From the IMG/VR virus record IMGVR_UViG_3300048575_000457, positions 1 to 54,128 of that record: a stretch of 54,128 bases of DNA. One strand, written 5' to 3'. Under the pieces are notes generated by a model. That model saw nothing but the letters and a program-made list of their open reading frames with translations, did no database searches and had not been told where the DNA came from. Each line of letters begins with the position of its first letter. The stretch's first letter is position 1. A program made the translations under genes and the position numbers. This document shows, piece after piece, positions 8,702 through 53,357 of this stretch. The stretch comes from a virus (Duplodnaviria; Caudoviricetes).

Positions 8702-8702
8702 G

Positions 8703-30884: not shown

Positions 30885-32711
30885 ATGAGCATTGCCATGG
30901 AGTATCGCGGCCCGGCCCTGGCCGCCGCCGTCGGCGACTGGCGGGCCACGTTTTTCGCGGGCCAGGCCTTTATCGCCAACCCCGGCGGCACGGATTGGGC
31001 CGTGAGCGTGGTGGACGGCGTGGCCTATGACGGGACCGAGACGCTGGTGACCCTGCGCTCGGCCGTGCTGACCGAGGCTTTCACGGCGGCCCAGGTCGGC
31101 CGCAACCCGGCCGGCGACGTCCAGGCCCATGCCGCCCGGCACCGGGCCGGCGGCCTGGACCCGCTGGCCCACGCCGATCTGGCCGGCGTGGCGGCCGGGA
31201 CCATGACCCACGCACAGATTGACGCCTATCTGGCCGGTTTAAGTGAGGTGGTGTCCGACGTGGACGCCGATCTGGCCGCCGAGGTCACGGCCCGCCAGAT
31301 TTGGCAGTCCGCCGTGGAGCAGACGCTGCTTGAGCAGGAGGCGGACCTTTCCGAGACCCGGAGCGCCCTGGAGACGGCCGTCAGCCTGCGCGCCCTTGCC
31401 GCCCGCGTCATCAGCACGTCGTTCCCCATCCAGGGCGGCGGCAGCCTGGAGGCCGACCGCACCCTGACCCTGGCCCTGGCCGTGGTGTCCGATCTGCTCG
31501 GCTACGGCGTGACGCTGTCCGGCAAGGTGGTCACCGACGAGATCCTCAAAGCGGTGACAAAACTGCTGATTTCTTCCAACACCACGATTTACGTGGCCAC
31601 CACCGGCAGCGACACGACGGGCACGGGGCTGGCCGGCGCGCCGTTCGCCTCGATCCACAAGGCTCTGGCGAGCATCGCCGGGATGCTCATCGCCACGGGC
31701 GTCATCGTGACCATCCAGGTGGCGGATGGCGTCTATACAGTCACCAGCGCCATCACCATCGACCACCCGGACGGCGATAAAATCCAGATCCTCGGCAACA
31801 CATCGGCCGAGACGACGGTGGCGATTGCAAGCATCGACACGACGGCCAAGACCATCACCGTGGCGGGGAACTATACGGCCAGCGTCGCCGTCGGGGATAT
31901 GATTGGCTGGACGGGGGATGTTAGAACCATAACCATATCGAGCATTTCCGGAAACGTCTTCACGGTGAGCACCGATCCTACCGGAAAATTAGCGATTGGC
32001 GACACGATTTATATTCTCAACGGTTCCACTTCGGCGAATATCAAATCATACGTCGTGACCGGATTCACGTCCACGACCGTCACTGTCAGCGCCACGATTC
32101 CGTCGACAACTGTGGGCGGAGCAAGTCTCACTGTGACGAATCAGGGCGCATATCTTGTCTCTGCCGTGGCTTACACTGGCGGAAGTACTGTCATCACCTG
32201 TTCGGATGAGACCATTGCGTCAGCCACGGTCGGTGGCGGCAGTGTTAAAATAATGCCGTGTAATAGATGTAGACTGCAAATCGCCGGCTCTATATCGTGT
32301 TTTTATGCCACGGCAAAACTTAAATTGCTCAATGGCTTCAGAATTGATTACGTTTCTGGGTCCTCGACTGTTGGGGTCAACGCTACGACGTGCGATATAG
32401 CAGTCGGCGGCCAGATGATTTTCAAAGGATTGTCCGTTGGGATGCAGGCCTATCGTGGAGCAAGCATTTTTGCGGCGACTGGATTTGTCTGCTACTCATG
32501 CACTACGGGCGTCAATATTCTGTATAGATCAACGTTTGCGGCAAATGGTGCTGGTCTCACTATTTTCAACGGTTGCACAACTGGGTGCATTGCAAACCAA
32601 GGCTCTTATGGATATTTGTACTCAACAATAGTTGGGTATCGGGGGAACACAGTCAACACGTCTCCGGCGCTCAACACCTCCGGCAATTACGACTCCTTCA
32701 TAGGCGGCTAG
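30885..32711 (+). CDS. Tail fibre / receptor-binding protein
   Basis: HAARH..GG.DPL, IYVATTGSDTTGTG...PFASIHKAL, IQVADGVY; Thr/Ser/Gly-rich lower-GC C-terminus. Confidence 0.82.
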   Translation: MSIAMEYRGPALAAAVGDWRATFFAGQAFIANPGGTDWAVSVVDGVAYDGTETLVTLRSAVLTEAFTAAQVGRNPAGDVQAHAARHRAGGLDPLAHADLAGVAAGTMTHAQIDAYLAGLSEVVSDVDADLAAEVTARQIWQSAVEQTLLEQEADLSETRSALETAVSLRALAARVISTSFPIQGGGSLEADRTLTLALAVVSDLLGYGVTLSGKVVTDEILKAVTKLLISSNTTIYVATTGSDTTGTGLAGAPFASIHKALASIAGMLIATGVIVTIQVADGVYTVTSAITIDHPDGDKIQILGNTSAETTVAIASIDTTAKTITVAGNYTASVAVGDMIGWTGDVRTITISSISGNVFTVSTDPTGKLAIGDTIYILNGSTSANIKSYVVTGFTSTTVTVSATIPSTTVGGASLTVTNQGAYLVSAVAYTGGSTVITCSDETIASATVGGGSVKIMPCNRCRLQIAGSISCFYATAKLKLLNGFRIDYVSGSSTVGVNATTCDIAVGGQMIFKGLSVGMQAYRGASIFAATGFVCYSCTTGVNILYRSTFAANGAGLTIFNGCTTGCIANQGSYGYLYSTIVGYRGNTVNTSPALNTSGNYDSFIGG

Positions 32712-32712
32712 T

Positions 32713-33252
32713 ATGCAGCTGGTAATCAGATCAATGACCGTGGCGGCTGTCCATCCTGATGACCAAAACATTTCTGGCGTGATCCAGTACAAGGATTGCC
32801 TCGTCCTCAATGTCCCCGACGGCACGCCCGTGGAACTCGGGCAGGTCTGGGCCATGGATTTGCCGGCGTTCAAGGACGCGATTTGCGGCCGCATCGAGGC
32901 CGCGCGCCTGGCCCTGGAGCAAGCCGGCGTCTGGATCAACTGGCCGGACGGGTCGCGCTCCAAGATCCAAACCCGCGACGAACGCGACTGGCGCAACATC
33001 AACGGCGTGGCCTCGCGCGGCCTGGCCCGGCTGACCCAGGCGCTGACGGACGCGGACTGGTTCCGGGACGCCGACAACGTCGATCACGAGCTGACCCCGA
33101 CCCAGGCGCTGGATCTGGGCTATCAGGCCTCGGCCGCCATCTCGGACATTGCCCGTGTGGCGCAAGCGGCCAAGGACGCCATCCGCGCCGACAGTGTCGC
33201 CACCGAGGCGGCCGTCCTGGCCATCGAAGCCGCCATCGCCTGGCCGGAGTAG
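32713..33252 (+). CDS. Tail fibre assembly-type protein (DUF4376-like)
   Basis: Follows fibre; WFRDADN...LT...AIAWP. Confidence 0.7.
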   Translation: MQLVIRSMTVAAVHPDDQNISGVIQYKDCLVLNVPDGTPVELGQVWAMDLPAFKDAICGRIEAARLALEQAGVWINWPDGSRSKIQTRDERDWRNINGVASRGLARLTQALTDADWFRDADNVDHELTPTQALDLGYQASAAISDIARVAQAAKDAIRADSVATEAAVLAIEAAIAWPE

Positions 33253-33283: not shown

Positions 33284-33317
33284 AAAGCCCCGGCCGCCAT
33301 CCTGGCCCCGGGGCTTT
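33284..33317. terminator. Hairpin/terminator at end of late operon
   Basis: AAAGCCCCGG...CCGGGGCTTT. Confidence 0.55.
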
Positions 33318-33349
33318 CCCTTTCCTCGCCGGCCGGCTATCCCCGGCCC

Positions 33350-33628
33350 ATGCAATCCTCGCTGTTCGATCCCCTCGCCTGGCTGGCCGCCCGCGACACC
33401 CTGGCCGTGCGCGACCCTGACGGGGTCGTGCGCCTGCGTTTCCGCCGCGACGTCCGCCCGGCCGTGCGGCAAGAGGCCGTGGCCGTGCTCGAAAAATGGG
33501 GGTGGCTGCTGGCAAAGCAGCTCGACGTGCCGGCCGGGGCGCGGCCGAGGACGGTGCGGCAGCTCGTGGCGGCGGGCAAGGTGGCGGTGGGGGAGGTGCG
33601 AAAAAATGCACGTGGGCTCAAAAAATAA
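33350..33628 (+). CDS. Hypothetical protein
   Basis: GC3-rich ORF MQSSLFDPLAWL... Confidence 0.55.
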   Translation: MQSSLFDPLAWLAARDTLAVRDPDGVVRLRFRRDVRPAVRQEAVAVLEKWGWLLAKQLDVPAGARPRTVRQLVAAGKVAVGEVRKNARGLKK

Positions 33629-33630
33629 TG

Positions 33631-33664
33631 TTGACTAAAAAACCGAACTTGGGTTATTTATATT
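33631..33664 (+). promoter_or_regulatory. Sigma70-like promoter with palindromic operator
   Basis: TTGACT 33631-33636, AT-rich -10 region, AACC-N7-GGTT at 33641-33655. Confidence 0.6.
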
Positions 33665-33712
33665 TCAACGACAGCGGGAAACGGCCCGCGAAAAGCAACC
33701 GCGAGGGACGCC

Positions 33713-34006
33713 ATGAACACCATCGAGAACCTGATCGCCTCCGTGATGCACTCTGAATCCCTGGACACCCTGTCTGCCAACCTGAACGCGCTGCAAATCG
33801 CCCTGGACGCCGAGAACGAGGGGCAAAGCATTCGCACTCGCATCGACGAGATTTGCGACATCACCAGCCTGCCGCTGTTCACGGCCGATACCGACATCCC
33901 CGAAAACGACGGGGACGGCGGCGCTTACTCCTGGGACGCCCGGCGATTTTTGACCCGTGACGAAAACAACGAATGGGTTATCCGCTCCCGCGAAATTGAG
34001 GCGTAG
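33713..34006 (+). CDS. Small acidic moron protein
   Basis: RBS GAGGGA; 97 aa, about 20 D/E, 7 R, no K. Confidence 0.8.
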   Translation: MNTIENLIASVMHSESLDTLSANLNALQIALDAENEGQSIRTRIDEICDITSLPLFTADTDIPENDGDGGAYSWDARRFLTRDENNEWVIRSREIEA

Positions 34007-34007
34007 C

Positions 34008-35408
34008 ATGTTCACGACGCTATACGATCTGACGTCCCCCCGGGTCGGGCGGCCTGATTTCACCATGACCGCCCGGATTCTCAGACTCACGTTGGCGGCG
34101 ACCGCGCCGGACAATGGCATTGCTCGATTGTTCGGTCCGGTGCGTGCTCTGCAGGCGGCAAGTGCGGAGGGATGCAGGCGCAAGCCGATCAAGCGGCTGC
34201 TTATTGACTCCGTCGGCGAGAGCAACAAAGGCGGCGATTTATTCAGGAGCGATGAAGCGGCTATAGAAAAACTGTGCCCGCATTGCGCCGGCCTCGCGCT
34301 GTTCTCCCGACAGTTGTTTGGGCCGCCGATGGGTATGGGGTTCCGGTCCTCGCCGTTTGTGTGGGCGACTGCATTTTTTTTAGACGAGGCCAAAAATCTT
34401 CCCGGCGTATATACAAGAACGTTCCCATGGATGCAGAACGATCCGCTTGTCTGGGCAGCCTCGCACCCCGACGACGCCGCCGTGTGGCCGACTCCAAACA
34501 CCTATTGGCTGCATGAGGGAGGTAAGGGCTTTTGCGACCTGTGCGGATCAACTGGCGTGGTCGTGCGCGAGTTTTCCATGCGCGGCGGCAGGGAGCCCTG
34601 GCCCACGGCGTCACAGCATCCCTGTTTTTCATATTATCCTGACGGCGAAATTTCCCACGCGGCCACGGATTCGAATCTCGCGTTGTCCCAGGCGCTCCAT
34701 CACATCCCGGCAATCCTCATCAACGCCCCGGACGGCGCTGTTGTTCGGTGGTTTTCAAGCTACGGAAGGAAAGCCAGCTTGCAATGGATGGGCGACGGTT
34801 GTTTTGAATGGAACTCCAAAACAAACCCGAGCTTGCTAGATATTTACACGTCAACCAGTGCTGCCGTCGCAGCAGGGGTCCGAGAGGCGCTTTATGGGCC
34901 TCACCACACGGATAAAGGGACCTTCGGGGCGGCTGACCAGCGAAAAAAATGGGCGTTCTCAACGTATCGCATGGAGGTTGTCCAGCGTGTTGAGTCAGAA
35001 TTGTCAGGCCCTTTGTCCTTGGCGCTCCATGGTGAAATTGATCTGGTGGAGTTTTACCAAATGGCGCACGGGCGCGGCAGGAAAACCTACGAACAATACG
35101 CTGAAATGCGCCGTATCGAGACGCATGGGCCACAATACGCCCGAGGTCTCGCCTATTACCGCGCCAATATGAAAAAGCTGCGCGAATCGATCGGCCTGTG
35201 CAGTGAGCAGACATTGACGCCGGCAAAACAGCAAGCGTCCCGTACCAACGGGAAGAAGGGTGGTCGTCGCCCCTCTATTGATTGGGCGCGGTGGGATGCG
35301 AAAATCTGGGGAAACGTCGCCCAACTGTCCAACGAGATTGGTTGCACGCCAGCCTCGATTTATATCAGGCGTAAACAATTGAAACAGCAAGATGGGTCAA
35401 CGGACTAG
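34008..35408 (+). CDS. Unknown moron protein with two CxxC and C-terminal DNA-binding-like tail
   Basis: 466-aa ORF, lower GC; CPHC, CDLC; ASRTNGKKGGRRP then VAQLSNEIGCTPASIY HTH-like. Confidence 0.7.
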   Translation: MFTTLYDLTSPRVGRPDFTMTARILRLTLAATAPDNGIARLFGPVRALQAASAEGCRRKPIKRLLIDSVGESNKGGDLFRSDEAAIEKLCPHCAGLALFSRQLFGPPMGMGFRSSPFVWATAFFLDEAKNLPGVYTRTFPWMQNDPLVWAASHPDDAAVWPTPNTYWLHEGGKGFCDLCGSTGVVVREFSMRGGREPWPTASQHPCFSYYPDGEISHAATDSNLALSQALHHIPAILINAPDGAVVRWFSSYGRKASLQWMGDGCFEWNSKTNPSLLDIYTSTSAAVAAGVREALYGPHHTDKGTFGAADQRKKWAFSTYRMEVVQRVESELSGPLSLALHGEIDLVEFYQMAHGRGRKTYEQYAEMRRIETHGPQYARGLAYYRANMKKLRESIGLCSEQTLTPAKQQASRTNGKKGGRRPSIDWARWDAKIWGNVAQLSNEIGCTPASIYIRRKQLKQQDGSTD

Positions 35409-35423
35409 ATGTTTTGGCAGAGT

Positions 35424-35813
35424 TCACGCCGCCACCCACCCCTTGCGCAAATAATGCGTCCGCATGATCCGCGCCGCAAAAAACGGATAGACGATCCAAG
35501 ACAGCCCGCCGGTCACGATGGCGGCCAGCAGGGCGGCCACGGCATGGGTCCACACGCCCTTGGCCGCGAAGTAGATGCAGCCCAAAAGCAGCACCCAGGC
35601 CCAGCAACCGCCGATGTCTTCGGTATGGCCGTTGGCCGGGTTGCGAAACACGGTGGCCGTGGCGTTGGCGTTCGTGGCGCTGGCCTTGGCGGCCGGCCCC
35701 TGGTTCGGCCGCAAGCTGCTGCCGCAGACCGGGCAGGCGTCACGGCCGGCCAGATCGGCGGCGCGGAACTCGACGCGGCAGCCTGGGCAGCGGGCGGTGA
35801 TGTCGTCGGGCAT
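35424..35813 (-). CDS. Zn-ribbon membrane protein (DUF2628-like C-terminus)
   Basis: CPGC...CPVCG; W...LLG.IYFAAKGVW TM segments. Confidence 0.72.
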   Translation of the reverse strand: MPDDITARCPGCRVEFRAADLAGRDACPVCGSSLRPNQGPAAKASATNANATATVFRNPANGHTEDIGGCWAWVLLLGCIYFAAKGVWTHAVAALLAAIVTGGLSWIVYPFFAARIMRTHYLRKGWVAA

Positions 35814-35822
35814 GGGGTTTGC

Positions 35823-36353
35823 CTAGGGTGTCTTGTTGGGGTTTATGTCGCAATCCAAAAAAAGATCCAGAGTCCATGCTGTAGTATTTTTTCCTTTTAG
35901 GCGGATTTTTACGGCAGGGAGATTGGTGTCAACTACGTATACGGATAGGTCTGGTTGCATAATGTCAGTACCCGGCTTTTGGATTGATTTTACCTTGGCC
36001 TCATAATCTTGACTTAAAAAAATTGAACGTAATTCCAATACGGATTTTTCAGTTGGGGCAAAAAAACCAATTTTTGTTTTGCAAAAACCTCCGTCGAATA
36101 GCGCGTCAGTGACAGTTCTTAGGTTGTTCGATGAAGACCTTTTGGGCTGGTTGTCTTCAAATAATATCCATTTGACTGCAAAATATAGTAACAAAATAAA
36201 AACGATAATGACGACGCACCCAAGAGCTGCCGAAGGCGGTCCCGGATCGGCCAGTTGGCCGCCGCAGACAGGGCACGTCTTGCGGCCGGCCACGTCTTCG
36301 GCGCGGAACTCGACTTGGCAGTGTGGGCATTTTGGTGGCGGACCGTCAGGCAT
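35823..36353 (-). CDS. Zn-ribbon single-TM protein with low-GC extracytoplasmic domain
   Basis: CPHC...CPVCG, TM GCVVIIVFILLLYFAV. Confidence 0.72.
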   Translation of the reverse strand: MPDGPPPKCPHCQVEFRAEDVAGRKTCPVCGGQLADPGPPSAALGCVVIIVFILLLYFAVKWILFEDNQPKRSSSNNLRTVTDALFDGGFCKTKIGFFAPTEKSVLELRSIFLSQDYEAKVKSIQKPGTDIMQPDLSVYVVDTNLPAVKIRLKGKNTTAWTLDLFLDCDINPNKTP

Positions 36354-36558
36354 AAATCAACCCCATCGCCCCTGGGCTACGGGGCGTCCGTCAAAGCCTT
36401 CGTCGCACGAATATCACTGGGGCTATCTTCTCCACGTCTTTGTCCTTCAAATCAAGGAAAAATTGTTCCCTCTCCCCGTACGGGGATTTTCTCTGTCCTG
36501 GAAGGGCAGTATACCGGGTCTCCTTGATGTCGGATGTCAATGTAGTTTCTTTTTGGAA

Positions 36559-37356
36559 TCAATCGTCAAACCCTCCAGAGGGCTCATGGATTTTATTATA
36601 TCCACAAGATGCCGGAGGCTCTGCGGTAGCGTAAGTGCTTTTAGTATTATTCGACCTTCCTGTGGCAATTGCTTCAAGTCCATTGGCAATCTTCTCGCTT
36701 GAAGCGTTAATTTCTAGCATTATTCTTTTGTAGGTTAGCATTTCTCTTTGTATACTTGTTAATCTTTCATTCATTTCTTCTGGAGGAACACTTTCACAAT
36801 TTGGTTCTTTGTCTGAAAAGTCACCCCTCGGCCCCCGTACCCAGTCAAGAGGACCATCTCTGTTATATTCTTCTTCGGTGAGAAATGGCTGTCCAACCTG
36901 GGCGATTAAGAAATTGGCGTTGATTTTGTACTTGTGAACCCATTGAGAGATCGTAAGGCAAGAGGGGAGGCTATGACATAGCATGAAAGATGTTAATTCG
37001 TCGTTGCCTACCCCTCCGGCTCTGGCGATTTCTGAATGGGTTGCGGGAAGTTGGCTCACTAATTCTTTAAGTGTATCTCCAATATGAACATACTCTGGAA
37101 TTAAGTTGGCAGATTGAGAATCACCTTTCGGCGTACCTTTCCCCAGAAGAAGCCACTCTGCTGAAAATCCGAGTTCTCTCGAAAGGACTTCTAGATCTTC
37201 AGCGGCAGGTCGTTGTCCTTTTTTCCAAGCCCTAATCTTCCCAATATTGAGGCCAAGAGCGTCGGCAGCCGCTTGGTCGCTCCATTTTTTTCCTTCAAAT
37301 TCAAGCATGCGTGAAATTTCTTTCTTAATTATTTCAAATTGTTTTGACCACTCCAT
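36559..37356 (-). CDS. Prophage repressor (CI-position XRE, two HTH domains)
   Basis: DQAAADALGL...WKKGQRP...SAEWLLLGKG; second unit HSEIARAGGV...INANFLIAQVG; divergent from cro/cII. Confidence 0.78.
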   Translation of the reverse strand: MEWSKQFEIIKKEISRMLEFEGKKWSDQAAADALGLNIGKIRAWKKGQRPAAEDLEVLSRELGFSAEWLLLGKGTPKGDSQSANLIPEYVHIGDTLKELVSQLPATHSEIARAGGVGNDELTSFMLCHSLPSCLTISQWVHKYKINANFLIAQVGQPFLTEEEYNRDGPLDWVRGPRGDFSDKEPNCESVPPEEMNERLTSIQREMLTYKRIMLEINASSEKIANGLEAIATGRSNNTKSTYATAEPPASCGYNKIHEPSGGFDD

Positions 37357-37357
37357 G

Positions 37358-37415
37358 GATAAAACTCTCTTTTTTAGATAATTTTCGCGTGACAACAGGA
37401 TAAATTTCTCGCAAA
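37358..37415. promoter_or_regulatory. Divergent immunity region with candidate operators
   Basis: GATAAAACTCTC (37358), GATAATTTTCGC (37377), GATAAATTTCTCGC (37399). Confidence 0.4.
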
Positions 37416-37458
37416 CGTTGATTCACGCGAACCGTACGCCACCATAACCAAAATCAAC

Positions 37459-38072
37459 GGAGCCGCCCCGCCATGCCCGCCAACGAATCCCGCCGGGAAC
37501 AATCCTTTCCGCCGTCCAAGGACGCGCCCGTCTTCGTCATCACGCATCGCCTCGTGTTCAACCGGGGCGGCTTGCCTGGGCGCGAGCTATTCCCCCTCGC
37601 GGGTCATGAGCGCGACGGCATCCTTGAGTTCCTCACACGCGGCGTCCGTGAGTTCCAGCGTCAAGAACCCATTTCCAACGTTGACGAGCAGGGTTCCGGG
37701 CATGGGGCCTTTGCGGAAGCCGATGGTTTCGATGGGGAGCAACAGACTGGCTTCGATGTTCTTCCCTTGGATGGCGATGGTTTCCGAAGGCGGCAGGGCT
37801 TTGGCTGCTTGTTGGGCGGTGCGAAGCAGAGCAGCGCAGGTTCTCGGGATGTCTAGGGACGGCAAGACAACGCCGACAGCGCCTTTCGAAGTCCTGCCGG
37901 CAAGCTGGGTCCAATTCCCGTCGTTGCTTGCCCCGGTATCGACTTCTTCGAGGTAGTGAATCCCAAAGTCTTTCATGTTGTTGCTCCGCCTCGGCCCAAG
38001 CCGAAAAGTTACAGTATCATCAACCCCAAATGGAGCCGCCCAGCCATGCCCGCCAACGAACCCTGCCGGGAA
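37459..38072 (+). repeat. 41-bp direct repeat pair (37459-37499 and 38032-38072)
   Basis: GGAGCCGCCC(C/A)GCCATGCCCGCCAACGAA(T/C)CC(C/T)GCCGGGAA, 38/41 identical. Confidence 0.85.
37587..37976 (-). CDS. Hypothetical protein between the direct repeats
   Basis: MKDFGIHYLEE... with GGAG RBS; protein-like composition. Confidence 0.6.
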   Translation of the reverse strand: MKDFGIHYLEEVDTGASNDGNWTQLAGRTSKGAVGVVLPSLDIPRTCAALLRTAQQAAKALPPSETIAIQGKNIEASLLLPIETIGFRKGPMPGTLLVNVGNGFLTLELTDAACEELKDAVALMTREGE

Positions 38073-38243
38073 GATGTTCCCGACCTCGGGAAACCCCGTA
38101 GCCCCATCGCCCGCCGCCGTTTCGGCGGGTTGGTGCGCCCCGAAGGACTCCGCCGGGTGGTGTACGTGATGACCGAGGCTGACCGCGAGAAAGGCGAACT
38201 GGTCGAGCGAATATATAATCTTATCGAAAAGTGGCGAGCGTAG
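38046..38243 (+). CDS. Hypothetical early protein
   Basis: Starts inside second repeat (GGAG...ATG). Confidence 0.5.
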   Translation: MPANEPCREDVPDLGKPRSPIARRRFGGLVRPEGLRRVVYVMTEADREKGELVERIYNLIEKWRA

Positions 38244-38295
38244 CGGGCACGGGCACGGACCCAACCCCAACCCTGACAAACTCCGAGGTTAGCGT

Positions 38296-38577
38296 ATGGA
38301 ATCGACGTCACAAGTAACCCCAATTGAGTTGACAAGGCAAGAGCGCCTGGAGCTGCACATGCGCCGGTCCGGCCTGACCTACCGCAAGATCGGGGCCATG
38401 ACCGACATCACCGGCCAAAGCGCCGCCCGGCATCTGCGGGCCGAGACCATCCCTCCGCGCCATCACGAAGTCTGGATCACCATTTTGCCAGCCGACTTGT
38501 TGCCGGCTCCAGCCTGGATCAAGCCCGGCCCCAAGGCGAAGTCGGACCAGCCAGACGACCAGCAGGCCGCCGCATGA
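38296..38577 (+). CDS. Cro-like HTH regulator
   Basis: GLTYRKIGAMTDITGQSAARHL; RBS GAGGT. Confidence 0.72.
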   Translation: MESTSQVTPIELTRQERLELHMRRSGLTYRKIGAMTDITGQSAARHLRAETIPPRHHEVWITILPADLLPAPAWIKPGPKAKSDQPDDQQAAA

Positions 38578-38764
38578 CCGCCCCGTCCCGCAACGTGCCC
38601 ACCAGCCAGGGCCGGAACCGGCCGCAGGCCGCGTCCGTCTCCCGGCGCTCGACCCCGCCGGCTTGGGGGCAGTTCTTGACCCAGCCGGTAGGCAATTGCC
38701 GGCCGGCCAAATTGCACACCCAGTGTTCGCAGTCAAGGCAGGAGTAGGGCGGATTGGTTGCCAT
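38519..38764 (-). CDS. Possible small Cys-rich protein antisense between cro and cII
   Basis: CLDCEHW...C...C...ACGRF pattern. Confidence 0.35.
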   Translation of the reverse strand: MATNPPYSCLDCEHWVCNLAGRQLPTGWVKNCPQAGGVERRETDAACGRFRPWLVGTLRDGAVMRRPAGRLAGPTSPWGRA

Positions 38765-38823
38765 GTTCGCAACATGTCAACACGGGCCGCCATCGTCTAT
38801 CAGATAATTTGAGAGGAAATCCC

Positions 38824-39273
38824 ATGTCCCGTAACCGCGACACCCTGACCGAGGTCTGCCACGCCATCGTGCTGGACGCGCCCAGCGGCAAAACGCCAAA
38901 GGAAATCGCCAAGGCGTTGGGGAGGATCTACACGACGCTCATGAACGAGCTGGCAATCCAGCCCGGGGCCAAGCTGGGGGCCGACATGGTGCTGCCGCTC
39001 ATGCTGCAAACCGGTTCCATGGACCCGCTGCATTATCTGGCCGACAACATGGGTTGCGTGGTCATCGAACTGCCCAGAACTCCGGCCGGCATGGACCCGC
39101 TGTCCCTGCAAGCCATGCAGGCCGTGGAAGAGATGGGACAGGTCATGGGCGAGTTTCGCAAGGCTGTGGCCGACGGGGTGGTGACGGCCAAGGAAAAGGC
39201 CCTGGTGCGCGCCGAGATTTACGAGACCATCCAGGCGCTCACCGCCCTGGGCGCGGCCCTGGAGCTGGCTTAG
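38824..39273 (+). CDS. Phage regulatory CII-family protein
   Basis: KEIAKALG..YTTLMNEL...AKLGAD...PLHYLA; ADGVVTAKEK. Confidence 0.82.
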   Translation: MSRNRDTLTEVCHAIVLDAPSGKTPKEIAKALGRIYTTLMNELAIQPGAKLGADMVLPLMLQTGSMDPLHYLADNMGCVVIELPRTPAGMDPLSLQAMQAVEEMGQVMGEFRKAVADGVVTAKEKALVRAEIYETIQALTALGAALELA

Positions 39274-44320: not shown

Positions 44321-44709
44321 CCGCCAAAACCGACCTTGCCGCCAATCGCGCCCTGACCGCCGAGGAAACCGCCTGGATCGAGGAATGGCTGCCCAGCCTA
44401 CCCAAGCGCGTGGCCCGGGAAGCGGTCTACGGTGTCCTGGGCGGCCTCATCAAGCCGGCCACGCTGATCTCCTGCGACAGCCTGGGCAACGGCCCGCCCA
44501 TCCGCTTCAAGATCGGCAAAAAAGTCGTCTACGACACCCGCGTGCTCCTGGAATGGATCGTGCGCCGCTACGGGTTTACCGTCCAAAAGGATCAGCAGGG
44601 GATGCTGGAGGATCTTCTGGATCGCAAAGAACCGCAACATCGGAAGCCAGCCAAGACGGGCGCAAGTGCGCGTACCGCTGGGTCATTGCGGGGGTCTTGT
44701 GCCGCATGA
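44317..44709 (+). CDS. Putative excisionase
   Basis: PATLISCDSLGNGP...KIGKKVVY....LLEWI; adjacent to integrase. Confidence 0.75.
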   Translation: MTAKTDLAANRALTAEETAWIEEWLPSLPKRVAREAVYGVLGGLIKPATLISCDSLGNGPPIRFKIGKKVVYDTRVLLEWIVRRYGFTVQKDQQGMLEDLLDRKEPQHRKPAKTGASARTAGSLRGSCAA

Positions 44710-45763
44710 GCTTCTGGATGCGGTACAGGTCCACGTCCTTGAGCGCCAGCCAGGAGGCAAACGTATGCCGCAAGCTATGAAACGTCAGCCGATGCCGCCG
44801 GTCCTCCTGGCCGGTATTGAGGCCGACGGCCTGGGCTACCCACCAAAATTGCTTGGACAGCTCCTTGCCGCGCTGGTCGGACGGCGGGAAGACCAGTCCG
44901 CCGTCGTGATCGGCCAGCCGTCGCCGCAACATGACCGCCGCGTCGCGGTTGAGCGGCACAATGCCGCCCGGCTTGCCCCCGTCCTCGCGCACGGTGAGAT
45001 AGCCGTGGGCCAGATCAATGTCGGCCGGCATGAGCCGGATGATCTCCCCCAGCCGCAACCCCGTGTTGACGGCCAGGATGGCCGCGTCATGCAGGTCGCA
45101 ACACTGGGTTTCCATGGCCGCGTCCAGCAGCCGGCGGTATTCGTCGCGGGTCAGAAACCGTTCGCAGGCATTGTCCAGCCGCGGCATCTTCACCCGCGAT
45201 GCCGGATTGCGCCGGTCGAACAGCCCCAAGGCGGTCAGGTGGTTGAAGGTCTTGCGCAGCAAGGCCAGGATCTGCTTGACCGTGGCCGGCTCCCATTCCT
45301 CAAGCAGCGCCTCGCGGAACTGCTCCACGGCCTCGGCGCTGATGTCCTCAAGCCGGGAGTCGCCGAACACGGGGTAGATGTGGTTTTTGAGCCGGATTTC
45401 GTCGAGCCAGGCGCTTTTCTTTTCCCGCAGGGACCAGGGGATGTAGTGGGTCTCGACCAGTTCGCGGTAGAGCAGGGCGGGTTGTCCCGCCTGTCCCGCC
45501 GCGCCGTCGGCCGTCCTGGCCTGCCGCCGCTCCCGCAGCGTGGCCGGACCCTCGCCGGACACATGTCCGGCCTGTATCTGATCGCGCAGCTCGGACGCCT
45601 TGCGCACCGTCCATCCCTCGGAGGACCAGCCAAGACCCTCCTCGATGTCCTTGCCTTGACGCTTGAAGCGGATGCTGAAATAGCGATCGGGAGCACCTCG
45701 GTGCAACCGCTCGGGATGCTCACGGTATCGAACGCCCTTGACCCCGCTGCTCATCCATTTCAT
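44576..45763 (-). CDS. int: Tyrosine integrase
   Basis: TGLRLGEI, FHSLRHTFASW, MRHKTPAMTQRYAH; N-terminal arm-binding-like domain; next to tRNA fragment. Confidence 0.95.
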   Translation of the reverse strand: MKWMSSGVKGVRYREHPERLHRGAPDRYFSIRFKRQGKDIEEGLGWSSEGWTVRKASELRDQIQAGHVSGEGPATLRERRQARTADGAAGQAGQPALLYRELVETHYIPWSLREKKSAWLDEIRLKNHIYPVFGDSRLEDISAEAVEQFREALLEEWEPATVKQILALLRKTFNHLTALGLFDRRNPASRVKMPRLDNACERFLTRDEYRRLLDAAMETQCCDLHDAAILAVNTGLRLGEIIRLMPADIDLAHGYLTVREDGGKPGGIVPLNRDAAVMLRRRLADHDGGLVFPPSDQRGKELSKQFWWVAQAVGLNTGQEDRRHRLTFHSLRHTFASWLALKDVDLYRIQKLMRHKTPAMTQRYAHLRPSWLASDVAVLCDPEDPPASPADPFGR

Positions 45764-45765
45764 CG

Positions 45766-45802
45766 CTGTCCCGCCCATGCCCTGTCCCGCCCCTGTCCCG
45801 CC
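45766..45802. repeat. CTGTCCCGCC x3, candidate integrase arm-type sites
   Basis: Copies at 45766, 45782, 45793; two more TGTCCCGCC at 45483 and 45492. Confidence 0.65.
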
Positions 45803-45915
45803 GTCGTTTTGATACTGATAAAGACACAGAAAGCCGGGTACGAAGAAAACCAAGGCTTGGCAACACTTTTACTCTTTCTCTGCCTTTATGTGCATGAAGC
45901 AAAAGACGCTGGGAA

Positions 45916-45998: not shown

Positions 45999-46027
45999 AG
46001 CACTCGTCTTTTGGGCGGGTGCTTTTT
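45999..46027 (+). terminator. Rho-independent terminator after tRNA 3' end
   Basis: AGCACTCGTC-TTTTG-GGCGGGTGCT then T-run. Confidence 0.7.
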
Positions 46028-46028
46028 G

Positions 46029-46063
46029 TTTACCCCCTCCCTTTTACCCCCCATTTACCCCCC
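46029..46063. repeat. TTTACCCCC x3, candidate arm-type sites of a second integrase
   Basis: Three closely spaced direct copies about 60-90 bp past the tRNA end. Confidence 0.6.
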
Positions 46064-46195
46064 AAAACCGTTCAGACGAGGTTCGGCCAGGTGATTTTTT
46101 TCAGGAGCTGTTGTCGTGGGCGGCCTGATTCTCGTCTCCTTTGTAGCCGTGATTGCCCGCCGGGCGGGCCATCCTTGTTTCGGGCTGCAGAAACG

Positions 46196-46219
46196 AAAAA
46201 CCCCGCCGAAGCGGGGCTT
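46196..46219 (-). terminator. Rho-independent terminator for TA transcripts
   Basis: Minus strand CCCCGC-TTCG-GCGGGG-TTTTT. Confidence 0.75.
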
Positions 46220-46387
46220 GATCGTGGGCGTGGTCACGTTCGCGATGATTCGGTGCGCTCAAGGGTCACATACCGTCATCCGGGACCTTGCGCTCCTTTG
46301 TTACCGCGACAAGAGCGGTGAGGGGCTTGCCTTTGGCAACGACGGTCGGAATCCGATGGCTTTTCGGGGGCTAAGGCAACGGATATG

Positions 46388-46720
46388 CTACAGAAAAATC
46401 CGCCAGTTCATGTTCAGGGCTTGCCCCAGTCGCTTGGCCATTTCCTTGCCAATTGGGCGCTTGCCCCGTTCCATCTCGGAAATATGGGACTTGTGCACAC
46501 CGATAGCGGCGGCGAGCTGGGCCTGGGTCATTTCCCGCAATCCCCGTGCGCCACGCAAAGCGCTATCCGGACCCAAGTCAGGAAAAACTTCCTCAATGGT
46601 GAACATAGGTTCCAGGGCTTCAGTCAGAGCCGTTTCCACCCTGGCCAACTCGGTCTCTTCCACCACGAAGGAGACCATCACTGTCCCGTCAGTACGGGGC
46701 GTTTTCGTGAGTTCCAACAT
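46388..46720 (-). CDS. XRE-HTH antitoxin
   Basis: LRGARGLREMTQAQLAAAIGVHKSHISEMERGKRPIG; overlaps upstream toxin. Confidence 0.88.
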   Translation of the reverse strand: MLELTKTPRTDGTVMVSFVVEETELARVETALTEALEPMFTIEEVFPDLGPDSALRGARGLREMTQAQLAAAIGVHKSHISEMERGKRPIGKEMAKRLGQALNMNWRIFL

Positions 46721-46973
46721 AGGTCACCTCCATGAGGCGGATAGTTTTATCCTCAACAATCCAGACGGCTACGTATGTCGGCCGACCTTTGTTGAGGTGG
46801 CAGTGGAAGGTGTTGCCTTGGTTTTTGAGCTTGCCGAAATGGGGCATTGCAGGCTGATTTGGGCCTTCCAGGCGCAACGACAGGGTCAAGATGCGGAAAC
46901 GGTCCCGAATCCCGGGCGGCATTTTATCAGCCGCTTTTTTAACCCGTGCCGGGATATTTACCGTCCATTCCAT
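46689..46973 (-). CDS. RelE/HigB-like toxin
   Basis: MEWTV...HCHL.KGRPTYVAVW...EVTYVGTHENAPY; toxin-first pair with HTH. Confidence 0.78.
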   Translation of the reverse strand: MEWTVNIPARVKKAADKMPPGIRDRFRILTLSLRLEGPNQPAMPHFGKLKNQGNTFHCHLNKGRPTYVAVWIVEDKTIRLMEVTYVGTHENAPY

Positions 46974-46979
46974 GGGATT

Positions 46980-47008
46980 CAAGTAACCAGCGGTTGGTTA
47001 TTTGTCAA
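46980..47008 (-). promoter_or_regulatory. Promoter with palindromic operator, probably leaderless toxin mRNA
   Basis: TTGACA-17-TACTTG-6-ATG; TAACC-N7-GGTTA at 46984-47000. Confidence 0.62.
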
Positions 47009-47312
47009 CGTCATCATCGTGTCTCGCCGGCCTGTCCTCCAGCGTCTGGACTATTCGGACATTCATAAAAGCGAAGTTTACATCGACCAGCTCCCAACGG
47101 GCATCTTGGTAAGCAGGATCGTCCTTGTAGCGCTCCAGGCTGCTGGGGGCCGGCTTTTCGGCCGCGTCATCCAGCATAAGCTCGACCGCCTCCTGGACGT
47201 TCGCAAGGGCCTCTTCCTGGGTGTCGCCGGCGGTGTTGCAGCCGGGGATATCCGGCAGGGTAACACCGTAGGCTTTACCTTGCTCGATGAAGACGGCGGC
47301 GGGGAAATACAT
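46998..47312 (-). CDS. hicB: HicB-family antitoxin (no adjacent hicA)
   Basis: YGVTLPDIPGCNTAGDTQEEALANVQEAVEL. Confidence 0.88.
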   Translation of the reverse strand: MYFPAAVFIEQGKAYGVTLPDIPGCNTAGDTQEEALANVQEAVELMLDDAAEKPAPSSLERYKDDPAYQDARWELVDVNFAFMNVRIVQTLEDRPARHDDDVDK

Positions 47313-47344
47313 AGCGCTCTCCTGCCTCAATCCACTTTCTCTCT

Positions 47345-47905
47345 CTACAGAAAAACCTTGTACGAAGTGTTCAGGGCTTTGGCCAAACGCTCGGCCATGG
47401 CTTCGCCAATGGGGCGCTTACCGGTTTCCATGGCGGAGATGTCGGCCTTGGTTACGTCGACCATTACTGCAAGCTGTTCCTGGGTCAGGTCCTCGCGCCG
47501 TCGCATACCTCGCAAGATATTACCCGGGCCCATGTCAGGAAAGGTGTCGGCGGTGCCGTACATGCGGTCGTCCAACACGAAAATCCGCCAGTTCATACCC
47601 AAGGTCCTGCCCAGTTTCTTGGCCATCTCCTTGCCAATGGGCCGCGTACCCCGTTCCATCCTGGAGAGTTGGGACTTGGAGACCCCGCTTGAAGCGGCAA
47701 GCTGCGCTTGGGTCATTTCGCGCAGACCGCGCATACCCCGCAAGGTGTCGCCCGGCCCAAGATCGGCAAAAACCTCTTCGGCCGGAATGTCCGGCTCCAA
47801 AGCTTCTTCGATGGCGCGCTCTACGTTGTCGACCCGATCTGCTGGAACTGCGGCACTGACCACCATGAATCCGTCAGCGCGGGGCGTAATCGTGATTTCC
47901 AACAT
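47345..47905 (-). CDS. Tandem double XRE-HTH antitoxin-like protein
   Basis: Two PG..LRGMR.RE.TQ.QLA...S.ME.G.RPIG units; close paralogue of 46388-46720. Confidence 0.85.
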   Translation of the reverse strand: MLEITITPRADGFMVVSAAVPADRVDNVERAIEEALEPDIPAEEVFADLGPGDTLRGMRGLREMTQAQLAASSGVSKSQLSRMERGTRPIGKEMAKKLGRTLGMNWRIFVLDDRMYGTADTFPDMGPGNILRGMRRREDLTQEQLAVMVDVTKADISAMETGKRPIGEAMAERLAKALNTSYKVFL

Positions 47906-47926
47906 AGGTGAGTACCCCCATCGCGT

Positions 47927-48271
47927 TTATTCATTCCGCAGCTGTTCCCATTCAACGCCCATGGCTTCCGCGATCTTCTTGAGAGTGGATACACGTGGGC
48001 GCACGCCTTGTGTCTCCATTTGGGCGAAGGCCGAACGTGTGACGCCCATCCGCCTCGCCACCTCCTCCTGGGTCAGCTTCATATGTTCCCGCCATGCCCG
48101 GATAAGGCTCATCTCACCAAGAAGGTTTAACTTTACGACCTCGTGGGGGATCATAACCTCTTCGTCGGGCCGACCGCCGAAGGCCTCTTCGTATTCGCTC
48201 CAGGGGATAATCGCGAAAAGGGGAGTTCCATCGGGGGACTTCAATATTTGGTGTTCAGTATGTCTGTTCAT
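47927..48271 (-). CDS. HigA-like XRE antitoxin
   Basis: DGTPLFAIIPWSEY, IPHEVV, IRAWREHMKLTQEEVARRMGVT. Confidence 0.88.
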   Translation of the reverse strand: MNRHTEHQILKSPDGTPLFAIIPWSEYEEAFGGRPDEEVMIPHEVVKLNLLGEMSLIRAWREHMKLTQEEVARRMGVTRSAFAQMETQGVRPRVSTLKKIAEAMGVEWEQLRNE

Positions 48272-48500
48272 CACGTTTTTTGACCTCCATGACTTTGACA
48301 ATGCGTGGAACGCCATCATGGATCGTAAACAGGACACGATAGCGGCCAACTCGCAGTCGATAGCCGTCCCTGCCTACGAGCGCCTTGACATTGCGGCAGT
48401 CCGGCCAGTTTTCCAGCGTATCGACCGCATCCATGATGGTCTGGATCACGGACTTGTCGAGTTTGGTCGCTTGCTTAAGGGCTTTGCTTGTCCATTCCAC
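48255..48500 (-). CDS. RelE/ParE-family toxin (start codon uncertain)
   Basis: WTSKALKQ, VKAL..RDGYRLRVGRYRVLF, EVKKRDEQTY. Confidence 0.85.
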   Translation of the reverse strand: MEWTSKALKQATKLDKSVIQTIMDAVDTLENWPDCRNVKALVGRDGYRLRVGRYRVLFTIHDGVPRIVKVMEVKKRDEQTY

Positions 48501-48729
48501 GCGATTTATGCGGTATATGTAAGAATAGGACAGTTTTTAGTCAAGCTGATACTTGCATTGGCGCAAAGCGTTCATCCCTTGACGCCCTCGGCCGGCCTCG
48601 GGCATGGTTATAGCCCCAACAGAACGTGGCGTCCTGCCGCCACCGCCGTCCCTTCCCAGGGGGCCGCGAAAGAGCGGGATTTTCTGTTTCGTCGCCCATG
48701 CGCCTCCCCTTTGGGGAAGGGCACATATT

Positions 48730-48800
48730 GGCGGCGGCTTGACGTCCGGGTGTCCGCGAGGCCCCGGCTGCGTTCTGCAGGGGAGCGTCATGCCGTCGCC
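48730..48800 (+). ncRNA. c4-like antisense RNA
   Basis: Outer stem GGCGGCGGC/GCCGTCGCC plus TGACG/CGTCA, GCGA-tetraloop hairpin, CTGC-GTTCT-GCAG hairpin complementary to CAGAACG repeats on both sides; upstream of antirepressor. Confidence 0.72.
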
Positions 48801-48838
48801 TTTTTTCGTGCCCAAATCCCAACAGAACGAGGTGCATC

Positions 48839-49561
48839 ATGACACGACTCATCCCCATCCACTCCGGCCAGCTGGCCGGCGAAGTCGTCCAGACCATCCA
48901 TGCCCGTGACCTGCACGCTTTCTTGAAAGTCGAAACCCGGTTCGACGATTGGATTCGGCGTCGAATCGAGGAGTACGGCTTTGTCGAAAACCAGGATTAT
49001 GTAGCAGGGGATTTTTCCTCAAAATTGAGGAAAAATGGGCGAGGCCGGCCGGCCATCGACTACCACCTGTCCATCAACATGGCCAAAGAGCTGGCCATGG
49101 TCGAAAAGACCGACAAGGGCCGGCAGGCCCGCCGCTATTTCATCGACTGCGAACGCCGGGCCAAGGCCGCCGCGCACCTCGCCTTGGGGCCCCAAACCCC
49201 ATCCCACCCCGCCGAAAGCCCGCTGCTCATCCTGGAAGGCGAACTGGCCCGTATCCGGGCCAATGTCGCGTATTTCAAGGACATGGCCGGTGCGCTCAAC
49301 ATCCTGGCATTCACCCACGACGCCGACGCGTTTTCCAAAAGCATGGCCGGCGCGCTGCGGGATATCGCCCAAAGCTGCAGCGATATGCTCGGGCGGGTGG
49401 CCGAGGACGTGGGGCAGGTGCGCGGCCGGACGTTGGCTGCCGTCAACGCGGTGCTGGCCGTAAGCCAGGGCAGCCAGGCCGACGCGGCTGTCCGGTCGGC
49501 CAAGGCGGCCAAGGCGGCCAGGGCGCGCTGGGACAAGGAACGAAGCAAGAAGACGCATTAG
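48839..49561 (+). CDS. AntA/AntB-family antirepressor
   Basis: ARDLHAFLKV...WIRRRIEEYGFVENQDY...GRP..DYHLSINMAKELAMVE..DKGRQARRYFIDCE. Confidence 0.93.
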   Translation: MTRLIPIHSGQLAGEVVQTIHARDLHAFLKVETRFDDWIRRRIEEYGFVENQDYVAGDFSSKLRKNGRGRPAIDYHLSINMAKELAMVEKTDKGRQARRYFIDCERRAKAAAHLALGPQTPSHPAESPLLILEGELARIRANVAYFKDMAGALNILAFTHDADAFSKSMAGALRDIAQSCSDMLGRVAEDVGQVRGRTLAAVNAVLAVSQGSQADAAVRSAKAAKAARARWDKERSKKTH

Positions 49562-49627
49562 CTGTGGCCCGTCGCCCCGGCCGGCAGGGAAAATGTTCCG
49601 GCCGGGGCGATACGGCAGGGGGAGCGT

Positions 49628-50992: not shown

Positions 50993-50998
50993 GAGGGC

Positions 50999-51024
50999 TC
51001 ATGCAGCTGCATGCAGCTGCATGA
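50999..51024. repeat. Perfect 26-bp palindrome made of ATGCAGCTGC repeats
   Basis: TCATGCAGCTGCATGCAGCTGCATGA. Confidence 0.8.
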
Positions 51025-51072
51025 ATGTGGATATGCAGGCGTCGGATAACTTTGTGCAGAGGCGGTGGCAGA

Positions 51073-51954: not shown

Positions 51955-52049
51955 CTACAAAAAGGGGTGAATGCTGGTTGATATTTACGGATTTAGTGCA
52001 GTTTATCGGTGCAGTAGAGTTGAAAAACGAGGAAAGCAGAGTTCACCAC

Positions 52050-52592
52050 ATGGCGAAGTTCACCGATGCGGACTACTTCGAAGGCAAGAAAGCAGGCCTG
52101 TCCCAAAAGCAGATGGCCATAGAGCATGGCGTTTGCGAGGCCTATGTCTCGAAAGTCAAGAAACGCTGCGAGGGAAGCGTTGCGGCCGCGACGCCGCCGG
52201 TGATCCAGGCCGAGGTGCTGACAAGGCAGCATGACGCGCTGACCAAGCTCTCGCTGTTGGCCGACAAGGCGGCCGCCCTCGCGGAGCTGTGCGAGAAGGC
52301 CCTTGCCGGCGATTGGCAGGCCAAAGGGCGGCTGGAGCAGCTTGTGGGGCGCAAGGGCAACGGTTTGCAGGCCTACGTCGCCATCCTGGCCGAGATGCGT
52401 AAGCAGCTGGAGCTGGACAACACGATCAAGCGCACCAAGTTCGATATCGAGCGGTGCATGCGTTTCCAGGACGAGACGCTCAAGGCAATCCAGGAAGAGT
52501 CGCCGGAGATGGCGGCGCGGATTGTCCGGCGGCTGGTGGCGGCTGACGCGACCCTCTCTGCCCTCGATTTTGGCCTGAAGCCGGCGGAGTAG
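52050..52592 (+). CDS. HTH protein, probable terminase small subunit
   Basis: GLSQKQMAIEHGVCEAYVSKVKK plus helical C-terminus; upstream of TerL. Confidence 0.6.
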   Translation: MAKFTDADYFEGKKAGLSQKQMAIEHGVCEAYVSKVKKRCEGSVAAATPPVIQAEVLTRQHDALTKLSLLADKAAALAELCEKALAGDWQAKGRLEQLVGRKGNGLQAYVAILAEMRKQLELDNTIKRTKFDIERCMRFQDETLKAIQEESPEMAARIVRRLVAADATLSALDFGLKPAE

Positions 52593-52593
52593 A

Positions 52594-52623
52594 TTCGTCG
52601 TCTTTCATACAAAAGACGACGAA
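52594..52623. other. Candidate tyrosine-recombinase core site (12-6-12)
   Basis: TTCGTCGTCTTT-CATACA-AAAGACGACGAA; extra half-site AAAAGACGACGAAAA at 52728-52742. Confidence 0.68.
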
Positions 52624-53348: not shown

Positions 53349-53357
53349 GGAGGGACC

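Follow-up and report, generated by a model that had tools for sequence, protein, structure and literature searches.

An orphan Cas8e/Cse1-like protein with a helix-turn-helix tail encoded by a provirus, a candidate Cas-derived anti-CRISPR

The IMG/VR record IMGVR_UViG_3300048575_000457 is a complete provirus of 54,128 bp (CheckV 99%), and its whole length is the stretch of DNA analyzed here (the window). Between its tail genes and its immunity region lie two adjacent genes, orfA and orfB, which encode a small acidic protein and a protein of 466 amino acids (aa), respectively. Residues 1-395 of OrfB are predicted, from profile comparisons and a structural model, to be a divergent form of Cas8e/Cse1 (the large Cascade subunit in type I-E CRISPR systems), and they are followed by a basic tail that we regard as a DNA-binding helix-turn-helix (HTH). 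We tentatively read OrfB as an anti-CRISPR (Acr) protein that was derived from a Cas protein and that may carry its own anti-CRISPR-associated (Aca)-like regulator. The features of the locus are as follows (window coordinates):

33631-33664, plus strand: AT-rich promoter-like stretch, with TTGACT at 33631-33636 as the -35 candidate
33641-33655: palindrome AACCGAACTTGGGTT, 15 nt, imperfect (6/7 pairs), between the -35 and -10 candidates; a candidate operator for the OrfB HTH
33655-33660 and 33659-33664: the -10 candidates TATTTA (18-nt spacer) and TATATT (22-nt spacer), both weak
33713-34006, plus strand: orfA, 97 aa, isoelectric point (pI) 4.08, 20 D/E, 0 Lys
34008-35408, plus strand: orfB, 466 aa, predicted Cas8e/Cse1-like protein with a C-terminal HTH
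34008-35192, plus strand: predicted Cas8e-like body, residues 1-395, a globular N-terminal domain and a C-terminal helical bundle (helices 275-394)
34275-34286, plus strand: first CxxC, C90/C93, aligned with E. coli Cse1 C140/C143 (profile alignment to 4qyz_A)
34533-34544, plus strand: second CxxC, C176/C179, aligned with E. coli Cse1 C250/C253
35235-35390, plus strand: basic C-terminal module, residues 410-461, an NGKKGGRR arm and a predicted three-helix HTH with the motif IDWxxWD...IGC; pI 10.4

Homology of OrfB to the Cascade large subunit

Both orfA and orfB are real genes, since each has homologues elsewhere (below). A GAGG Shine-Dalgarno sequence lies 4-6 nt ahead of the ATG in each case (in GAGGGA at 33702-33707 for orfA, and at 33998-34001 for orfB), and orfB, which begins after a gap of 1 nt beyond the orfA stop, is translationally coupled to it. 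We placed the orfB start at ATG 34008 and not at GTG 33957 because the N-terminus of a homologue, P0001 (below), agrees with the former. The initial annotation had described the two products as a Lys-free acidic protein of 97 aa with about 20 D/E and the motifs DITSLPLF and YSWD, and a lower-GC protein of 466 aa with two CxxC (CPHC from residue 90 and CDLC from residue 176) and an NGKKGGR (NGKKGGRR, 414-421); these descriptions hold in full (orfA is 59% GC, orfB 57% and the window 65%). It had also been unable to assign either protein to a family, and this still applies to OrfA, whereas OrfB can now be assigned to Cas8e/Cse1.

Several sequence comparisons lead to this assignment. The PADLOC library gave three matches to OrfB, all of them Cas8e models, at residues 35-114 (E 3.5e-6, 1.5e-4 and 1.2e-3). 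A phmmer search of 1.84 billion representative proteins with OrfB reached the true full-length Cas8e proteins P0010, P0012 and P0013 at E values of 1.4e-5 to 2.6e-4, and these three score 225-302 bits against the Pfam family PF09481 (CRISPR_Cse1). An hhalign comparison of OrfB plus P0001 with five true Cas8e proteins gave Prob 99.3% and E 3.7e-20 over 196 columns, which span OrfB residues 8-210 and Cas8e residues 34-286. The identity of OrfB to Cse1 chains of solved structure is 12-16%; phmmer found no match to it among PDB sequences, and Pfam found none in its middle part.

The remainder of the body was compared by structure. The AlphaFold2 (AF2) model of OrfB was made from a 12-sequence alignment that included true Cas8e, with no templates, and has a mean predicted local distance difference test (pLDDT) value of 77.4 and a predicted template modeling score (pTM) of 0.71. 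Foldseek found 23 matches to this model in the PDB at E <= 0.001, and among the matches listed ranks 1-21 were all Cse1/CasA (E. coli Cse1, E 1.4e-9), while the first match listed after the Cse1 rows had E 0.19. Structural alignment with VIA-align gave the same picture: 18 Cse1 entries had Z values of 14.7-21.5 and the best unrelated row had Z 5.8. The alignment with E. coli Cse1 (Z 21.5, root mean square deviation 3.9 Å, 363 residues) spans residues 3-393 of the model and 1-495 of the chain, and therefore both the globular zinc-bearing domain and the four-helix C-terminal bundle should be present in OrfB. In the viral structure library BFVD no match to the fold was found at E <= 0.001.

In E. 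coli Cse1 the zinc ligands are given as C140, C143, C250 and C253, the L1 loop is described as inserting into Cas5e and touching the 5' handle of the CRISPR RNA (crRNA), and the helical bundle as contacting Cse2 (PMC5965380). The four cysteines of OrfB that align with these ligands, C90, C93, C176 and C179, are invariant in nine of nine sequences (alignment A2) and make up a candidate zinc site. A segment equivalent to the L1 loop (about residues 77-93) is kept ahead of the first CxxC, with F79 at the position of E. coli F129, and D77, an RPDF motif and an R..Q motif are invariant across OrfB, P0001, the short orphans (below) and true Cas8e. OrfB is homologous to Cas8e yet is no regular member of the family: it has the predicted fold and zinc site, and it falls below the Pfam cut-off and stands outside any cas operon.

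Relatives of OrfB, its HTH tail, OrfA and the genomic setting

OrfB is rare. The phmmer search above gave only 15 matches at E <= 0.001:

P0001, 459 aa: 41% identity over the full length, with the Cas8e-like body and HTH both kept
P0002: a fragment whose sequence is that of OrfB
P0003, 376 aa: a chimera, an unrelated N-terminus followed by OrfB-family residues 186-460
P0005-P0008, 351-385 aa: a group of four short Cas8e-like proteins
P0010, P0012 and P0013: bona fide full-length Cas8e
P0004, P0009, P0011, P0014 and P0015: HTH-repeat proteins that match OrfB residues 388-458 only

PF09481 was found at E <= 0.01 in 8 of the 14 matches scanned, in seven of them above the cut-off. A word-indexed search of 5.8 billion protein clusters found no homologue of OrfB at E <= 0.001 and, with the profile of alignment A2, only three true Cas8e. 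Viral contigs yielded no locus when scanned with exact OrfB peptides and a single locus (L002) when scanned with the OrfB alignment; genome contigs yielded none; metagenome contigs yielded two (L003 and L004), which agree with the 52-kb contig of L002 in length and position, belong to the same contig family and carry the chimeric P0003; and tblastn against GenBank phages gave no match. Within the provirus record PF09481 is matched by OrfB only, PADLOC gave no Cas match on 25 other open reading frames (ORFs), and none of 20 tandem-repeat rows is CRISPR-like. OrfB is an orphan Cas8e homologue on a provirus, without cse2, cas7, cas5, cas6e, cas3 or an array. An unrooted tree built from 12 sequences sets OrfB, P0001, P0005-P0008 and a related protein of locus L009 (below) apart from five true Cas8e with support of 100/98, these five being the best matches only and too small a sample to place the origin of the orphan lineages.

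Two of these relatives lie in cassettes of their own. In L002 (6680-8831) P0003 consists of about 100 unrelated acidic N-terminal residues joined to OrfB-family residues 186-460, so that it lacks the first CxxC and the L1-like segment but still has the rear half with the bundle and the HTH. Its record on nine contigs shows that it did not arise by faulty assembly. Ahead of it are two ORFs of 182 and 94 aa, both unrelated, and an AT-rich region that contains TATAAT; directly after the TATAAT, at the start of the cassette, is the palindrome TTGTAC-CGAA-GTACAA (perfect, 6+4+6). Locus L009, in another phage, encodes a short Cas8e-like orphan of 381 aa that belongs to the P0005-P0008 group and scores 62 bits on PF09481. 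Its features are:

7585-7612, plus strand: promoter-like site that holds a perfect 14-nt palindrome (7596-7609)
7585-10074, plus strand: five-gene cassette encoding an 86-aa acidic protein (pI 4.26), the 381-aa Cas8e-like protein, and proteins of 85 aa, 64 aa (basic) and 156 aa (Zn-ribbon)

This cassette is on the opposite strand between a Q-like antiterminator gene and endolysin/spanin genes, and has no cas neighbors among the ORFs scanned; genes for portal, terminase and head proteins lie further along. The 64-aa basic protein is ribbon-helix-helix-like (judged by eye only) and gave nothing meaningful against the PDB; the 86-aa acidic protein is unrelated to OrfA. The L009 cassette resembles an acr-aca-type operon with a Cas8e homologue at its core.

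The HTH-like C-terminal segment reported in the initial annotation gains support from three predicted helices in the AF2 model (426-432, 437-444 and 448-461), from a VIA-align match of the tail to the Tn3 resolvase HTH (5cy1_B 141-185; Z 5.3, root mean square deviation 3.2 Å, 43 residues) and from the phmmer matches to HTH-repeat proteins. The motif IDWxxWD...IGC...RR..L is common to the OrfB tail, the repeat units of P0004, P0009, P0011 and P0015, and P0014, an 81-aa stand-alone protein with the same NGxKGGRP arm; HTH models of the AsnC type or homeodomain-like kind give weak matches to four of the five. In phmmer against the PDB the tail alone matched only IS629 OrfA (E 0.75). We regard the tail, from its motif and modeled helices, as a probable DNA-binding HTH of an undescribed subfamily. 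An acr-aca operon contains an HTH regulator, and here the OrfB tail would supply it, on modest evidence. The repeat unit itself is about 45 aa long (IDWxxWD..LG...D..LA..IGC....V..RR..LGI) and occurs in 3-8 tandem copies in some proteins, once in the 81-aa protein and once as the OrfB tail; it is apparently undescribed.

OrfA has only two homologues in the 5.8 billion clusters, P0019 (76% identity) and P0020 (56%), and DIPENDGxGGAYSWD is conserved among the three. Pfam, PHROGs, NCBIfam and PADLOC gave no match to it at E <= 0.1 (the sole row was phrog_8832, E 0.35); its AF2 model has a pLDDT of 64, too low for a fold search; and the ESM Atlas gave no usable feature match, its structural rows having template modeling scores of 0.33-0.51 and no family name. 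No match to OrfA was found in viral contigs, and four partial matches in genome contigs (18-43 residues, unrelated organisms) were taken as spurious. We also considered and rejected OrfA as a split-off piece of Cas8e: hhalign gave Prob 0.5% and E 0.12 against true Cas8e and Prob 0.05% against the short orphans. The best-matching stretch, OrfA residues 12-37 (33746-33823) on Cas8e 73-98, falls exactly on the helix that OrfB is without, which is probably chance. A predicted complex of OrfA and OrfB had a score of 0.00 and a mark of 0.32, which counts neither way.

The gene order of the provirus, from PHROG scans of 45 ORFs, starts with primases, terminase, portal, a protease-capsid fusion, and endolysin plus holin, and continues with the major tail, tape measure and tail proteins that end at 32708. 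The position right after the tail genes, as first described, is correct; a DUF4376 protein and one small ORF intervene. Around orfA and orfB the order is:

32704-33249: DUF4376 protein, after the tail proteins
ending at 33628: small ORF, between the DUF4376 gene and orfA/orfB
35424-35822 (132 aa) and 35823-36353 (176 aa), minus strand: paired Zn-ribbon ORFs, convergent with orfB, with 15 bp between the stops
36559-37395, minus strand: CI-like repressor, 278 aa (HTH_19/HTH_3, under cut-offs)
next after the repressor gene: a Cro-sized ORF, a CII-like activator (38758-39273) and a sliding-clamp-like gene
44579-45868, minus strand: integrase

With tail-fiber genes on one side and the immunity region (CI/Cro/CII) on the other, orfA and orfB occupy the classic accessory ("moron") slot. 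The GC content falls along the window from about 65-70% to 57-59% in orfA/orfB and to 46% further on.

Other observations on the record are as follows. The two Zn-ribbon ORFs are adjacent paralogues that start with MPD..P.CP.C.VEFRA.D.AGR..CPVCG and continue with a hydrophobic segment; neither has a PHROG, Pfam or PADLOC family match, and they are possibly prophage accessory or exclusion proteins. The end of the 176-aa ORF, the CI-like repressor gene and a 230-aa unassigned ORF lie in a low-GC island at 35800-38300 (46-54% against 65%); this suggests that the immunity module was recently exchanged. The single long frame at 9794-12799 matches "major head and protease protein" (phrog_4523, E 2.5e-155), which indicates a fused protease-capsid gene, and a 378-aa protein (phrog_2045) encoded at 42753-43886 matches the PADLOC candidate-defense models PDC-M41B (E 4.5e-40) and PDC-M30B (E 2.5e-39). 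The region past the integrase gene (46000-54128) has the look of a further mobile element: besides an unassigned ORF of 915 aa it encodes an Ant-like anti-repressor, a DnaB-like helicase and a replication initiator, and it contains another integrase-like gene (52713-53348) and a large terminase of phrog_675, a different family from that of the large terminase at 6824-8698 (phrog_15). The record may therefore be two tandem elements. The terL product has only about 30% identity to known phages, and no tRNA genes were found in the window. A look for public sequencing runs covering 33300-35700 listed none, RNA runs included.

Possible functions of OrfB

All that goes beyond OrfB having a Cas8e fold we infer. 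The reading that we put forward, at a little under an even chance of being right, is that OrfB is a Cas-derived Acr, a faulty type I-E Cascade subunit with a fused Aca-like HTH. It would be a phage-captured and strongly diverged Cas8e that acts by mimicking a subunit. Expressed from the prophage or in the course of infection, it would replace the host Cas8e at Cascade's Cas5e/crRNA-handle end and Cas11 belly, or would titrate those partners, by means of the parts that it keeps for folding and plausibly for docking (the zinc core together with the L1-like segment and the bundle). Because about 100 residues of a working Cas8e are missing from OrfB, a complex assembled with it would break down when reading the protospacer adjacent motif (PAM), locking the R-loop or recruiting Cas3. 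The HTH would recognize the palindrome of its own promoter and so be a built-in Aca-type autorepressor, and OrfA would be a co-expressed accessory and possibly a second inhibitor. The initial annotation had proposed a new anti-defense operon, in view of the known pairing of small acidic proteins with an autorepressing HTH. The anti-defense part of this proposal is strengthened, because OrfB is a solitary phage-borne Cas8e homologue and Cas homologues carried by phages and mobile genetic elements have been shown to act as anti-CRISPRs (bioRxiv 10.1101/2023.06.24.545427); the roles of the two proteins are not those first pictured, and on these analyses the large OrfB, rather than OrfA, appears to be the best Acr candidate, carrying the HTH itself.

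A number of observations weigh against this reading. At the level of sequence, OrfB scores 18.0 bits on PF09481 at residues 47-209 (E 0.0018) where the cut-off is 24.7, NCBIfam has no match to OrfB, and the sequence-level homology could be shown only over residues 8-210, so that the helical bundle rests on the AF2 model. The isolated HTH tail matches no Pfam model, and PHROGs, NCBIfam and PADLOC give nothing for it at E <= 0.1. OrfA was not found in the L002 record, that is, not beside P0003. The record is that of the provirus alone, and a type I-E system in its host is a presumption. The chimeric P0003 has lost the N-terminal half, and therefore docking to Cas5e is not essential for the role of that variant; an AcrIB4-like mode of action that uses the helical bundle and a DNA-binding role independent of CRISPR would suit P0003 equally, and it is mainly for this reason that our confidence stays below even.

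The promoter region adds to these points. It had been described at the outset as a promoter with an AACC-N7-GGTT palindrome in its spacer; TTGACT and the palindrome are indeed present, and the intergenic region 33629-33712 is 50% GC compared with 65% for the window, but a sigma-70 consensus scan made no promoter call at 33631-33664, since even the better -10 candidates there are poor. In the window AACC-N7-GGTT is found two times where 0.72 would be expected, and 17 of 100 shuffles reach at least two; this count is within chance, and therefore the operator-bearing promoter is by itself no more than chance. The palindromes of the window, L002 and L009 have no common sequence, and being unlike they argue for a common architecture and not for a common operator. 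An operator-bearing promoter upstream of orfA is plausible; orfA and orfB could equally well be transcribed by read-through from the late operon; and that the OrfB HTH may bind 33641-33655 we infer only from the sequence.

The strongest competitor, which we consider doubtful though worth serious attention, is that OrfB is an exapted Cas8e fold with no link to CRISPR: a sequence-specific DNA-binding regulator or exclusion factor of the prophage, with OrfA as its modulator, that would serve, for example, lysogenic conversion, superinfection exclusion or host-gene control through its HTH and a DNA-facing Cas8e-like surface. The divergence of OrfB agrees with this (12-16% identity to solved Cse1, a score below the Pfam cut-off and about 100 residues deleted), as does the fusion of a dedicated HTH. 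The L002 variant, with residues 186-460 behind a foreign N-terminus, would make the rear half plus HTH the conserved core, and the genes adjoin the immunity module, with two Zn-ribbon membrane proteins alongside whose genes resemble prophage accessory genes. What speaks for the Acr reading instead is that the zinc site, RPDF, R..Q and the L1-like segment are retained despite the divergence, which suggests that Cas8e-type interactions are still selected, and that the orphan viral Cas homologues that have been tested are reported to act on CRISPR (bioRxiv 10.1101/2023.06.24.545427).

It is improbable that OrfB is an alternative large subunit that re-purposes the host Cascade, by a changed PAM specificity or by tethering through the HTH, for silencing or the exclusion of rivals without Cas3. 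Such a subunit would need what OrfB appears to have, the full two-domain Cas8e architecture with zinc site and L1-like segment and an added DNA-binding module, and a prophage gene could be expressed in the lysogen. There is, however, no precedent in our literature search and no crRNA, array or further cas gene on the element, and the many deletions suit a loss of function better than a new function. The more specific form of this idea, in which the HTH and an altered PAM-reading body would turn the host Cascade into a Cas3-independent DNA-binding device for silencing, protection from self-targeting or exclusion of rival phages, we hold to be slightly less probable still.

A two-gene defense or toxin-antitoxin system of the prophage, the alternative offered by the initial annotation, is very unlikely. 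The tight coupling of the genes (1-nt gap), the pairing of a small acidic with a large basic product and the prophage accessory locus would all suit it, but Pfam, PHROGs, NCBIfam and PADLOC revealed no effector domain in OrfA or OrfB (toxin, nuclease, NTPase or any other), the only defense-library matches of the pair are the Cas8e models, and the OrfB relative in L002 occurs without orfA. Least probable of all is that OrfB is a decaying remnant: it is a solitary, much diverged and shortened cas-like gene with a chimeric truncated relative (P0003), but its 466-codon frame is intact, P0001 is full-length and 41% identical with the structural residues conserved, the HTH was gained and then conserved in P0001 and P0003, and the gene has a good Shine-Dalgarno sequence and is coupled to a conserved upstream gene.

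Should the Acr reading be right and OrfB be active, it would be a type I-E inhibitor made from a whole large subunit, with inhibitor and regulator in one chain, and it would mean that cas genes, once captured, can diverge until the standard Cas profiles no longer detect them. OrfB fails both the Pfam cut-off and the word-indexed search, and therefore homology screens may undercount captured cas genes. Type I-E is the best-studied Cascade (that of E. coli) and is used in genome engineering, so an off-switch that works by subunit replacement would be of practical interest. OrfB and the L009 lineage also form a small comparative set for the Cas8e surfaces that are kept to enter Cascade and those that are lost to disable it.

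Comparison with known systems

Compared with Cas8e/Cse1/CasA (PF09481; structures 4u7u, 4qyz, 5h9e, 4an8 and 3wvo), OrfB has the four-Cys globular domain, the L1-like segment and, in the model, the helical bundle. It differs from true Cas8e in being about 100 residues shorter and in being without the N-terminal "LLxDxWIPV" hairpin, the helix of about 27 residues after helix 1 and parts of the region after the second CxxC. It also has the extra HTH, which was not seen in the Cas8e sampled, and it is encoded alone, without a cas operon.

Some anti-CRISPRs carry their own regulator; AcrIIA1, for example, is an Acr with a built-in Aca-type HTH. AcrIIC9 (as cited in bioRxiv 10.1101/2023.06.24.545427) and AcrIF24 (according to its abstract) are likewise described as having an autoregulating HTH of their own. 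OrfB resembles these three in that a putative inhibitor and a putative autoregulator share one chain and in that a palindrome, here within chance, lies in or beside the candidate cassette promoter, and it differs from them in that its HTH is like those of resolvases and transposases and has a GGRR arm.

Cas-derived anti-CRISPRs are recent discoveries, which have been demonstrated so far for type I-B (Cas5 and the Cas8b C-terminal domain) and for Cas3 homologues. According to Katz et al. (bioRxiv 10.1101/2023.06.24.545427), AcrIB3 is a homologue of Cas5 and AcrIB4 of the last 90 residues of Cas8b, both from Listeria mobile elements; acting inside Cascade, they block type I-B immunity upstream of DNA binding while Cascade still assembles, true Cas proteins expressed alone are described there as giving no such block, and AcrIB3/4 form a clade apart from the true Cas proteins. 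The same source counts 358 orphan cas genes in IMG/VR viral genomes, often in anti-defense loci, and a 2026 review (PMC13131331) has AcrIB3 displace Cas5 during assembly. Like AcrIB3 and AcrIB4, OrfB is homologous to a subunit of Cascade and is encoded by a mobile element away from any cas locus; the faulty-subunit mechanism would be shared, for OrfB as a proposal, and a clade apart from true Cas may be shared too, to judge from the small tree in which the orphans separate from five true Cas8e. Unlike them it belongs to subtype I-E and not I-B, has the whole predicted large-subunit fold and not the last 90 residues, and has a fused HTH. Its identity to true Cas8e is about 25-30% over the aligned part compared with 38% in the AcrIB3/AcrIB4 case, and the activity of the AcrIB proteins has been shown whereas OrfB is known from its sequence alone. 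Our literature search found no phage Cas8e-HTH fusion and no Cas8e-derived Acr; Table S3 of Katz et al., which lay outside the search, may include cas8e orphans like that of L009.

The nearest relatives of OrfB after P0001 and P0003 are the short orphans, P0005-P0008 and the L009 protein, which like it are solitary viral Cas8e homologues with the same zinc motifs, and the L009 cassette shares with that of the window a palindrome-bearing promoter-like site and a small acidic upstream protein. The short orphans (24-27% identical to OrfB) differ in keeping the Cas8e N-terminal hairpin, in passing the Pfam cut-off (26-72 bits), and in having another, shorter rear without a fused HTH. As a candidate Acr, OrfB would be new among these systems in its subtype (I-E), its whole large-subunit fold, its fused HTH and its divergence beyond profile thresholds.

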